From Escherichia coli (GTDB taxonomy: Bacteria > Pseudomonadota > Gammaproteobacteria > Enterobacterales > Enterobacteriaceae), in assembly GCF_022846255.1 (NCBI RefSeq), contig NZ_AP025682.1: a stretch of 64,000 bases of DNA. The stretch is one strand, 5' to 3'. The notes beneath the pieces are model-generated. The model saw only the letters and a program-made list of their open reading frames with translations. It was not told the DNA's origin and did no database searches. The first letter of the stretch is position 1. Every line of letters begins with the position of its first letter. The translations under genes were made by a program, and so were the position numbers. Below, piece after piece: positions 31,291 through 35,292 of the stretch.

Positions 31291-31396
31291 TCACCCTGTG
31301 TGACGTCGATTCGGGCGTCACGCTCTCTCCTTTTTCATTTTACCTTCTGCGGAGGGTAGGGGGAGCTTTTACCTGAAATACGCCACGGAGGCGGGT

Positions 31397-31695: not shown

Positions 31696-33099
31696 ATGAA
31701 TCAACAGGATATTGAACAGGTGGTGAAAGCGGTACTGCTGAAAATGCAAAGCAGTGACACGCCGCCCGCCGCCGTTCATGAGATGGGCGTTTTCGCGTCC
31801 CTGGATGACGCCGTTGCGGCAGCCAAAGTCGCCCAGCAAGGGTTAAAAAGCGTGGCAATGCGCCAGTTAGCCATTGCTGCCATTCGTGAGGCAGGCGAAA
31901 AACACGCCAGAGATTTAGCGGAACTTGCCGTCAGTGAAACCGGCATGGGGCGCGTTGAAGATAAATTTGCCAAAAACGTCGCTCAGGCGCGCGGCACACC
32001 AGGCGTTGAGTGCCTCTCACCACAGGTGCTGACCGGTGACAACGGCCTGACCCTGATTGAAAACGCGCCCTGGGGCGTGGTGGCTTCGGTAACTCCGTCC
32101 ACCAACCCGGCGGCAACCGTAATTAATAACGCCATCAGCCTGATTGCCGCGGGCAACAGCGTCATTTTTGCCCCGCATCCGGCGGCGAAAAAAGTCTCCC
32201 AGCGGGCGATTACGCTGCTCAACCAGGCGATTGTTGCCGCAGGCGGGCCGGAAAACTTACTGGTTACTGTGGCCAATCCGGATATCGAAACCGCGCAACG
32301 TTTGTTCAAGTTCCCGGGTATCGGCCTGCTGGTGGTGACCGGCGGCGAAGCGGTAGTGGAAGCGGCGCGTAAACACACCAATAAACGTCTGATTGCCGCA
32401 GGCGCTGGCAACCCGCCGGTAGTTGTGGATGAAACCGCTGACCTCGCCCGTGCTGCTCAGTCCATCGTCAAAGGCGCGTCTTTCGATAACAACATCATTT
32501 GTGCCGACGAAAAGGTACTGATTGTTGTTGATAGCGTAGCCGATGAACTGATGCGTCTGATGGAAGGCCAGCATGCGGTGAAACTGACCGCAGAGCAGGC
32601 GCAGCAACTGCAATCGGTGTTGCTGAAAAATATCGACGAGTGCGGAAAAGGCACCGTCAGCCGTGACTGGGTTGGTCGCGATGCGGCGAAAATCGCGGCG
32701 GCAATCGGCCTTAAAGTTCCGGAACAAACGCGACTGCTGTTTGTAGAAACCTCCGCAGAACATCCGTTTGCTGTGACTGAACTGATGATGCCGGTGCTGC
32801 CCGTCGTGCGCGTCGCCAACGTGGCGGATGCCATTGCGCTGGCGGTGAAACTGGAAGGCGGTTGCCACCACACGGCGGCAATGCACTCGCGCAACATCGA
32901 AAACATGAACCAGATGGCGAACGCCATTGATACCAGCATTTTCGTTAAGAACGGACCGTGCATTGCCGGGCTGGGGCTGGGCGGGGAAGGCTGGACCACC
33001 ATGACCATCACCACGCCAACCGGTGAAGGGGTAACCAGCGCGCGGACGTTTGTCCGTCTGCGTCGCTGTGTATTAGTCGATGCGTTTCGCATTGTTTAA
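31696..33099 (+). CDS. eutE: EutE CoA-acylating acetaldehyde dehydrogenase (467 aa)
   Basis: ORF track; aldehyde dehydrogenase family; N-terminal encapsulation-peptide-like helix. Confidence 0.93.
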   Translation: MNQQDIEQVVKAVLLKMQSSDTPPAAVHEMGVFASLDDAVAAAKVAQQGLKSVAMRQLAIAAIREAGEKHARDLAELAVSETGMGRVEDKFAKNVAQARGTPGVECLSPQVLTGDNGLTLIENAPWGVVASVTPSTNPAATVINNAISLIAAGNSVIFAPHPAAKKVSQRAITLLNQAIVAAGGPENLLVTVANPDIETAQRLFKFPGIGLLVVTGGEAVVEAARKHTNKRLIAAGAGNPPVVVDETADLARAAQSIVKGASFDNNIICADEKVLIVVDSVADELMRLMEGQHAVKLTAEQAQQLQSVLLKNIDECGKGTVSRDWVGRDAAKIAAAIGLKVPEQTRLLFVETSAEHPFAVTELMMPVLPVVRVANVADAIALAVKLEGGCHHTAAMHSRNIENMNQMANAIDTSIFVKNGPCIAGLGLGGEGWTTMTITTPTGEGVTSARTFVRLRRCVLVDAFRIV

Positions 33100-33109
33100 G
33101 GAGTAACAG

Positions 33110-33946
33110 ATGGCGCACGACGAACAATGGCTCACCCCACGTCTGCAAACGGCGGCAACGCTGTGTAACCAGACGCCCGCCGCGACGGAATCTCCGCTGT
33201 GGCTGGGGGTGGATCTGGGCACCTGCGATGTGGTGTCGATGATTGTTGACTGCGACGGTCAGCCGGTGGCGGTATGCCTCGACTGGGCCGATGTGGTCCG
33301 CGACGGCATCGTCTGGGATTTCTTCGGTGCGGTCACCATTGTTCGTCGCCATCTCGACACCCTCGAGCAGCAATTCGGTCGCCGTTTTAGCCATGCGGCG
33401 ACCTCTTTTCCTCCAGGCACGGACCCGCGTATTTCCATCAACGTGCTGGAGTCTGCCGGACTGGAAGTGAGCCATGTGCTGGATGAGCCAACCGCAGTTG
33501 CGGATCTGCTGCAACTGGACAACGCCGGTGTAGTGGATATCGGCGGCGGCACTACCGGCATTGCCATCGTGAAAAAAGGCAAAGTGACGTACTCGGCGGA
33601 TGAAGCCACCGGCGGACATCACATCTCTCTGACTCTCGCCGGAAATCGTCGTATTTCGCTGGAAGAGGCAGAGCAGTACAAGCGCGGTCACGGTGAAGAG
33701 ATTTGGCCCGCGGTGAAACCGGTGTACGAAAAAATGGCGGACATTGTCGCCCGGCATATTGAAGGGCAGGGCATTACGGATTTATGGCTGGCGGGCGGCT
33801 CTTGTATGCAACCGGGCGTGGCGGAACTGTTTCGCAAACAATTCCCGGCGTTACAGGTGCATTTACCGCAGCACAGTTTGTTTATGACCCCGCTGGCGAT
33901 CGCCAGTAGCGGGCGAGAGAAAGCGGAGGGGCTATATGCAAAATGA
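33110..33946 (+). CDS. eutJ: EutJ actin/Hsp70-fold chaperone-like protein (278 aa)
   Basis: ORF track; DLGTCD and GGGTTG ATPase-fold motifs. Confidence 0.9.
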   Translation: MAHDEQWLTPRLQTAATLCNQTPAATESPLWLGVDLGTCDVVSMIVDCDGQPVAVCLDWADVVRDGIVWDFFGAVTIVRRHLDTLEQQFGRRFSHAATSFPPGTDPRISINVLESAGLEVSHVLDEPTAVADLLQLDNAGVVDIGGGTTGIAIVKKGKVTYSADEATGGHHISLTLAGNRRISLEEAEQYKRGHGEEIWPAVKPVYEKMADIVARHIEGQGITDLWLAGGSCMQPGVAELFRKQFPALQVHLPQHSLFMTPLAIASSGREKAEGLYAK

Positions 33947-35123
33947 ATTGCAGACCGCGCTCTTTCAGGCGTTCGATACCCTGAATCTGCAACGGGTAAA
34001 AACATTTAGCGTTCCACCGGTGACGCTTTGCGGTCCGGGCGCGGTGAGCAGTTGTGGGCAGCAAGCGCAAACGCGTGGGCTGAAACATCTGTTCGTGATG
34101 GCAGACAGCTTTTTGCATCAGACCGGGATGACCGCCGGGCTGACGCGTAGCCTGGCCGTTAAAGGTATCGCCATGACGCTCTGGCCATGTCCGGTGGGCG
34201 AACCATGCATCACCGACGTGTGTGCAGCCGTGGCGCAGTTGCGTGAATCAGGTTGTGACGGGGTGATCGCGTTTGGCGGCGGCTCGGTGCTGGATGCGGC
34301 GAAAGCCGTGGCGTTGCTGGTGACGAACCCGGATAGCACGCTGGCAGAAATGTCAGAAACCAGCGTTCTGCAACCGCGCCTGCCGTTGATTGCCATTCCA
34401 ACGACCGCCGGAACCGGCTCTGAAACGACTAACGTGACGGTGATTATCGATGCGGTAAGCGGGCGCAAACAGGTGTTAGCCCATGCCTCGCTGATGCCGG
34501 ATGTGGCGATCCTCGACGCCGCATTGACCGAAGGTGTGCCGTCGCATGTCACGGCGATGACTGGCATTGATGCGTTAACCCATGCCATTGAAGCGTACAG
34601 CGCGCTGAACGCCACACCGTTTACCGACAGTCTGGCGATTGGTGCCATTGCGATGATTGGCAAATCGCTGCCGAAAGCGGTGGGCTACGGTCATGACCTT
34701 GCCGCGCGCGAGAGCATGTTGCTGGCTTCATGTATGGCGGGAATGGCGTTTTCCAGTGCCGGACTTGGGTTGTGCCACGCGATGGCGCATCAGCCAGGGG
34801 CGGCGCTGCATATTCCGCACGGTCTGGCGAACGCCATGTTGTTGCCAACGGTGATGGAATTTAACCGGATGGTTTGTCGTGATCGGTTTAGTCAGATTGG
34901 TCGGGCGCTGCGAACTAAAAAATCCGACGATCGTGACGCTATTAACGCGGTAAGTGAGCTGATTGCGGAAGTCGGGATTGGTAAACGACTGGGCGATGTT
35001 GGTGCGACATCTGCGCATTACGGTGCATGGGCGCAGGCCGCGCTGGAAGATATTTGTCTGCGCAGTAACCCGCGTACCGCCAGCCTGGAGCAGATTATTG
35101 GTCTGTATGCTGCGGCGCTATAA
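33936..35123 (+). CDS. eutG: EutG iron-containing alcohol dehydrogenase (395 aa)
   Basis: ORF track; Fe-ADH family; overlaps eutJ by 11 bp. Confidence 0.92.
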   Translation: MQNELQTALFQAFDTLNLQRVKTFSVPPVTLCGPGAVSSCGQQAQTRGLKHLFVMADSFLHQTGMTAGLTRSLAVKGIAMTLWPCPVGEPCITDVCAAVAQLRESGCDGVIAFGGGSVLDAAKAVALLVTNPDSTLAEMSETSVLQPRLPLIAIPTTAGTGSETTNVTVIIDAVSGRKQVLAHASLMPDVAILDAALTEGVPSHVTAMTGIDALTHAIEAYSALNATPFTDSLAIGAIAMIGKSLPKAVGYGHDLAARESMLLASCMAGMAFSSAGLGLCHAMAHQPGAALHIPHGLANAMLLPTVMEFNRMVCRDRFSQIGRALRTKKSDDRDAINAVSELIAEVGIGKRLGDVGATSAHYGAWAQAALEDICLRSNPRTASLEQIIGLYAAAL

Positions 35124-35135
35124 AAGTGTACGGAC

Positions 35136-35240
35136 AGTCCCCTCGCCCCTTTGGGGAGAGGGTTAGGGTGAGGGGAACAGAGTCGCGCCGGTGCAAACAA
35201 TTACCCTCACCCCGGCCCCTCGGCTTCCAGAGTGAGGGAA
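35136..35240. repeat. GC-rich imperfect palindromic repeat in the eutG-eutH spacer
   Basis: cccctcgcccctttggggagaggg and gggtgagggg...ccctcacccc inverted repeats; family not assigned with confidence. Confidence 0.55.
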
Positions 35241-35292
35241 AAACCCACTTTCAGCATTGGCAATAAATAACAACTAACAGGGAGTAAAGGCG

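Follow-up and report, generated by a model that had tools for sequence, protein, structure and literature searches.

The closest described systems for the element we examine here are the REP elements and BIMEs, on the one hand, and the TMECO family, earlier called BoxC or PIT (potential intrastrand triplex), on the other. For REPs, a transposase-like partner (RAYT/TnpAREP) is known and influences on mRNA stability have been documented; their hairpins reportedly shield upstream mRNA, as Newbury et al. are said to have found in 1987 for the malEFG operon. We know of neither a transposase-like partner nor documented mRNA-stability effects for BoxC, a repeat family that has been described since 1992 and was reportedly treated by Bergler in that year and by Hoyne et al. 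in 2000. The TMECO motif has the form CCCTCNCCC N3-6 GGGNGAGGG N3 GGGNGAGGG (Holder et al. 2015, PMC4666352), and the same study knows of 5 loci in K-12 at which a type A motif is paired with an inverted type B motif, finds no link of TMECO with mobile elements, and reports no association of PIT elements with gene function or operon position. We searched the literature for any earlier description of an element between eutG and eutH and for follow-up studies of TMECO, and Holder et al. 2015 was the only relevant study returned.

We analysed a 64-kb window (the whole stretch of Escherichia coli DNA under study) in which the spacer between eutG and eutH stands out within the eut operon. The spacer occupies 169 bp because eutG stops at 35123 and eutH begins at 35293, and it is the widest gap of the operon, whose other junctions overlap or span at most 45 bp except for eutM-eutN at 106 bp. 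The initial annotation had singled out this spacer for a nested palindromic repeat, and its coordinates and the quoted strings were all present in the sequence, with cccctcgcccctttggggagaggg at 35139-35162, gggtgagggg at 35166-35175, and ccctcacccc at 35204-35213. A repeat finder returned one inverted repeat of 12 nt (92% complementary) and two of 11 nt (91%) in the spacer, along with two short direct repeats 64 nt apart that result from its palindromic layout. Used as a query, the 169-bp spacer had 100% matches in many E. coli chromosomes. The features discussed below are collected in Table 1.

Table 1. Positions, in the 64-kb window, of the features at and around the eutG-eutH junction
Feature	Position	Strand	Description	Basis
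eutG	33936..35123	+	395 aa; TAA stop abuts the spacer	ORF; homologous regions annotated eutG in RefSeq
Artefact ORF	35018..35200	-	First 26 codons in the allele-specific repeat, remainder antisense to the eutG 3' end	
eutG-eutH spacer, BoxC allele	35124..35292	+	169 bp	
Complete composite BoxC unit	35130..35247 (about)		~118 bp; type A motif and degenerate inverted type B motif on either side of the core	Paralogue alignment
BoxC / PIT / TMECO type A (mm) intrastrand-triplex motif	35140..35175	+	CCCTCGCCCCTTTGGGGAGAGGGTTAGGGTGAGGGG	Consensus match
Central core between the two motifs	35176..35203		28 nt, AACAGAGTCGCGCCGGTGCAAACAATTA	
Degenerate type B TMECO	35204..35238	-	CCCTCACTCTGGAAGCCGAGGGGCCGGGGTGAGGG	
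CUUCC, predicted partner of the eutH Shine-Dalgarno	35224..35228	+	Predicted to pair with GGGAG (35280-35284)	Partition-function folding
eutH leader, conserved	35260..35292	+	33 nt; Shine-Dalgarno GGGAG at 35280-35284	
eutH	35293..36519	+	408 aa	ORF; RefSeq annotation agrees

Elsewhere in the operon, the second-largest gap, between eutM and eutN (31291-31396), contains a terminator-like stem-loop at 31298-31323 on the plus strand, whose stem of 10 pairs includes 6 G-C pairs and runs into a T-rich tail, and this candidate internal attenuator may act after the shell gene eutM. Further downstream, eutB directly follows eutA (36516-39292), a position at which the CPZ-55 prophage adjoins eutA in K-12, so the operon is uninterrupted in the window.

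On the basis of sequence identity, we regard it as essentially settled that the GC-rich palindrome in the eutG-eutH spacer represents one copy of BoxC, a dispersed repeat of E. coli. The published TMECO pattern, searched as a regular expression on both strands of the 64 kb, has a single match at 35140-35174 on the plus strand, where 5e-9 matches would be expected. Over 35140-35175 the 36-mer has exactly the sequence of K-12 TMECO no. 7, a type A motif with one mismatched triplet (Table 1 of PMC4666352), and of TMECO no. 544 of strain NRG 857C, listed at NC_017634 2561759-2561724 (Table S8 of PMC4666352). We had calculated the position of the NRG 857C motif (2561724-2561759, minus strand of NC_017634) from a blast match before looking it up in that table, and because the predicted coordinates are those of entry 544, the eutG-eutH locus is already known and already catalogued. 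The copy shares with the described family its identical sequence, its intergenic position between the eutG stop and the eutH start, its multi-copy nature, the TTA loop of type A, and, in what looks like a degenerate form, the inverted type B partner. It differs in that the type B partner is decayed and fails the consensus, and in that the copy lies inside a polycistronic operon as an alternative allele to a BIME array, two points on which the catalogue is silent. An Rfam 15 search of 34800-35600 at a permissive threshold yielded no family that reached its gathering threshold; the best scores were 15-19 bits against thresholds of 40-94, all from unrelated eukaryotic families.

Alignment to paralogous copies shows that one composite BoxC unit occupies the spacer: the coding strand has a perfect type A motif, which is followed by the 28-nt core and a decayed type B motif in inverted orientation. 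The core is kept among the aligned paralogues (e.g., GGAACAG..CCGGTGCGAAC.AAT). Compared by eye with the intact paralogue copies CCCTCGCCCTTTCAGGGAGAGGGCCGGGGTGAGGG, the inverted type B motif carries about 3 substitutions and 1 inserted base; it retains the CCG loop region and the GGGTGAGGG block, and a regular-expression search with the TMECO consensus pattern gave no match within it. The paralogue at cca-bacA covers 98% of 35130-35250 with 84% identity in blastn, and those at sstT-alx and gcvP-ygfF cover 73% with ~88% identity. The median number of BoxC places per E. coli genome ranges from 7 (megablast) to 15 (blastn), and these counts, together with the full-length paralogues, bear out the earlier suspicion that the repeat belongs to a multi-copy family. 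No further BoxC copy was found in the 64-kb window, so that the eutG-eutH element is a single copy there. We also note a few BoxC copies on E. coli plasmids, e.g., NZ_AP023208.1 2572-2622 and NZ_CP083871.1 17138-17176, which amount to 10-26 places among all records.

The window's list of open reading frames includes a 60-aa minus-strand ORF with a TTG start that overlaps the repeat. The initial annotation took this ORF for an artefact and we concur. Although the frame itself is present, its start codon lies within the repeat core and its N-terminal 26 codons are translated repeat, the remainder runs antisense to eutG and no promoter-like site accompanies it, and the ORF is missing from the 94% of E. 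coli that do not have the BoxC allele. The chance that it encodes a small protein is negligible in our view, and on these grounds we rejected a coding reading.

We counted carriers of the BoxC allele with a junction-specific 51-mer. Of 5426 complete E. coli genomes, 305 (~5.6%) had it, in every case as one chromosomal copy. All 12 of the non-BoxC E. coli spacers that we read consisted of REP/BIME sequence, either partial REP or 1-5 units of ~100 bp, with two such units making up the 216-bp spacer of K-12 and partial REP or REP/BIME units making up the spacers of 99, 116, 316, 415, and 516 bp. Among 39 chromosomes sampled at even spacing, the most frequent lengths were 216 bp (15 chromosomes) and 116 bp (13 chromosomes), followed by 99 bp and the 169-bp BoxC spacer (3 each), 316 bp and 515-516 bp (2 each), and 415 bp (1). 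The ~100-bp steps in which E. coli spacer lengths ascend (99, 116, 216, 316, 415, and 516 bp) arise from a variable number of tandem REP/BIME units, and the site thus behaves like a VNTR. The only part of the spacer common to all E. coli alleles in alignment is the 33-nt eutH leader, whose counterpart in some Citrobacter is the 27-bp "empty" spacer.

This picture is extended by representative genomes from 48 other species, among which the scan did not retrieve E. fergusonii or E. albertii. Repeat-free spacers of 27-48 bp occur in several Citrobacter, Pluralibacter, Yokenella, Buttiauxella, Hafnia, Morganella, and others, while other Citrobacter, Klebsiella, Pseudocitrobacter, and Salmonella have species-specific REP-like palindromes in the spacer, and the other Escherichia species recovered have BIMEs. 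BoxC, whether as donor or as ancestral state, was found at the eutG-eutH junction in none of these 48 genomes; given this absence and the BIMEs of the other Escherichia, the BoxC allele looks derived within E. coli. On these comparisons the junction is a recurrent, permissive landing site for palindromic repeats; elsewhere it is left empty or filled by REP-type sequences or BIMEs, and in the ~5.6% of E. coli that are carriers BoxC sits there in their place. Every occupant in every genus is a stable GC-rich palindrome, which could also reflect selection for some hairpin at this position.

The BoxC allele resembles REP/BIME elements in occupying the position that they hold in the 12 non-BoxC E. 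coli spacers and in other genera, and in that both are GC-rich palindromes that are transcribed within operons and are a known source of intergenic polymorphism, but the two are unrelated in sequence. We rejected a REP/BIME identity for the BoxC allele itself: REP cores (GCCKGATGMG-type) are absent from both strands of 35124-35292 and present in K-12 and the other non-BoxC alleles. The element is also similar to MITEs such as ERIC/IRU in being small (~118 bp), non-coding, dispersed, imperfectly palindromic, and polymorphic for presence and absence, with the difference that no transposase is known for BoxC. No flanking direct repeat was evident on reading the sequence, and the alternative allele in E. 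coli is a BIME and not an empty site.

The distribution of nucleotide diversity bears on the age of the allele. Nucleotide diversity (pi) among carriers was 0.36% in the spacer, 3.9% in eutG, and 2.8% in eutH (n=10), compared to 1.9%, 3.4%, and 2.7%, respectively, in strains with the 216-bp BIME spacer (n=6), a contrast that is indicative only, since these 10 and 6 genomes are small samples hand-picked in part for flank divergence and in part for spacer differences. Spacers were identical in 7 of the 10 carriers, and differences reach to 5 nt before the eutG stop codon. Five SNPs clustered within the final 27 nt of eutG occur in 6 of 11 carriers and in none of the 12 BIME strains or the 48 other species. 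In a comparison with K-12 over 9 kb of the operon, we detected no local spike of divergence that would mark a foreign import, with identity uniform at 96-97% except for this five-SNP cluster. The near-invariance of the spacer on diverged flanks suggests a BoxC allele of recent origin that spread on short recombination tracts; an allele with such a history would not be a designed part of eut regulation.

In the window itself the cluster lies at 35097-35119, where ATTATTGGTCTGTATGCT stands in place of ATTGTCGGCCTGTACGCA and the changes are synonymous or conservative. The eutG of the window ends in Leu (CTA) where Gln (CAA) is usual, a variant that is shared only with CE-O153H30 among the strains compared.

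The analysis established what the element is, which family of copies it belongs to, how frequent the allele is, what else occupies the site, and that terminator and promoter features are lacking. We consider it likely that BoxC is a tolerated passenger at a site permissive for repeats, and that any effect through RNA hairpins is modest. The initial annotation was right that a real, multi-copy palindromic repeat lies in the spacer, but the regulatory role that it proposed, a dedicated setting of the ratio of upstream to downstream eut products, is not supported for an element carried by 305 of 5426 genomes, replaced by REP/BIME in 12 of 12 others read, missing from the empty junctions of related genera, and devoid of terminator or promoter features. 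In the polycistronic mRNA the unit would form stacked GC-rich hairpins. The most to be expected of them, as of REP hairpins, would be a slower 3'-to-5' decay of the segment upstream; a reduction of eutH translation in the BoxC allele, through pairing of CUUCC with the Shine-Dalgarno sequence, may come in addition. Folding predicts such hairpins, but their stability is unexceptional for the base composition, with the whole spacer at -57.2 kcal/mol (z = -1.26) and the BoxC element alone at -49.8 kcal/mol (z = -2.28); the BIME spacer of K-12 folds more strongly than the BoxC spacer, at -93.5 kcal/mol (z = -3.7).

Some BIMEs attenuate transcription in a Rho-dependent manner, and the presence of a GC-rich hairpin within a 169-nt untranslated stretch raises the idea of a partial transcription terminator or attenuator inside the operon. 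The spacer resembles an intrinsic terminator in having a GC-rich stem-loop in a transcribed region, but a scan of both strands of 35124-35292 found no hairpin with a U-tract, no T-run follows any of its hairpins, and the only terminator-like sites of the scan lie inside eutH (35310-35328); a promoter scan of the spacer likewise found no sigma-70-like site. The essential genes eutB and eutC lie downstream, and in the assays of Hoyne and Maher, to the extent that these are summarised in PMC4666352, PIT elements acted neither as promoters nor as terminators and left RNA polymerase unaffected. We therefore regard termination as very improbable, and as the least likely idea of what the repeat does in the operon. 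A second reading, in which the hairpins block 3'-to-5' exonucleases or attract an endonuclease and thereby set the ratio of eutS-G to eutH-R, would draw on the predicted stability of the unit and the still more stable folds of the alternative REP/BIME occupants, on the shielding of upstream mRNA that REP hairpins reportedly provide in malEFG, and on the absence from the operon of any other long untranslated gap besides eutM-eutN. We judge an RNA stabiliser or processing site of this kind to be rather unlikely: the fold is ordinary for its composition, 94% of E. coli lack the element, several genera that share the operon leave the site empty, no Rfam family matches, and such a function is unreported for BoxC/PIT in Holder et al. 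2015 (PMC4666352). The purine-motif triplex of the family is absent in RNA (PMC4666352), so that only hairpins matter on the mRNA. A more specific possibility is a helix between the eutH Shine-Dalgarno sequence and CUUCC, a loop segment of the decayed type B arm, which would lower EutH synthesis in this allele. Partition-function folding gave the pairing a probability of 0.84-0.93 and left the Shine-Dalgarno unpaired with a probability of only 0.03-0.12 in nearly all contexts that included the whole element; the corresponding value is 0.08 in the BoxC allele versus 0.33-0.58 in four REP/BIME alleles and the minimal leader, and it is restored to 0.55 by an in-silico CTTCC>GAAGG change. Against this, the helix is only 5 pairs long, including a G-U pair, around a loop of ~50 nt, the unpaired probability rises to 0.38-0.41 in some windows when the RNA ends at the start codon, the pairing is predicted on thermodynamic grounds, and the carriers, being nearly identical in sequence, give it no comparative support. 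We consider allele-specific tuning of eutH by this route improbable, and the stronger version, in which a young BoxC cassette spread by very short tracts into many diverged E. coli backgrounds (including the Crohn's-associated O83:H1 strain NRG 857C) would alter eut stoichiometry mainly by sequestering the Shine-Dalgarno, a slightly longer shot.

The element might instead act on DNA, with a triplex, hairpin, or cruciform in single-stranded DNA promoting breakage and recombination, which would make the locus a rearrangement hot spot and not a regulator. Oligonucleotides of the type A(mm) kind form a stable intrastrand purine-motif triplex in vitro, as judged by CD, NMR, and melting with a Tm of ~74 C, and a published control oligonucleotide is the exact 36-mer of 35140-35175 with G-to-C changes; TMECO loci were moreover more variable than control loci across 56 strains (PMC4666352). 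PIT elements also blocked DNA polymerase in vitro, with no effect on reverse transcriptase or conjugation, according to what PMC4666352 summarises of the work of Hoyne and Maher. At the eutG-eutH junction itself there are at least 7 length alleles, recombination breakpoints appear 5-25 nt from the spacer, and the five-SNP cluster at the end of eutG was met only together with the BoxC allele. These observations are offset by in vivo DMS footprinting, which detected no triplex at the one site examined (PMC4666352), by the length variation, which is in BIME copy number and does not need BoxC, and by the REP insertions at the same junction in other genera, which indicate that the site is permissive for other reasons, and we hold this reading to be somewhat unlikely. 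As a separate observation, the 64 kb has only two canonical G-quadruplex patterns, both on the plus strand, one at 32968-32986 inside eutE and the other at 35153-35175 in the purine half of the BoxC motif, GGGGAGAGGGTTAGGGTGAGGGG, which might form a G-quadruplex as RNA; NMR of the DNA oligonucleotides favoured the triplex and spoke against a quadruplex (PMC4666352).

As a probable passenger from a known family at a catalogued locus, the repeat has little consequence for the biology of the eut operon, although a real effect on operon polarity is conceivable, as is a mild one at the RNA level. The practical value lies in annotation, where BoxC/TMECO repeat is the proper label for the spacer and the antisense ORF is best left uncalled. 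The near-invariance of the spacer on diverged flanks and the predicted Shine-Dalgarno pairing are new but minor results. Of modest interest are this near-invariance and the expression of eutH across the different occupants of the junction (BoxC, 1-5 BIME units, or none), since, if the tuning of eutH were true, BoxC, BIME arrays, and the empty site would together form a natural dial of the ethanolamine transporter relative to the enzymes.
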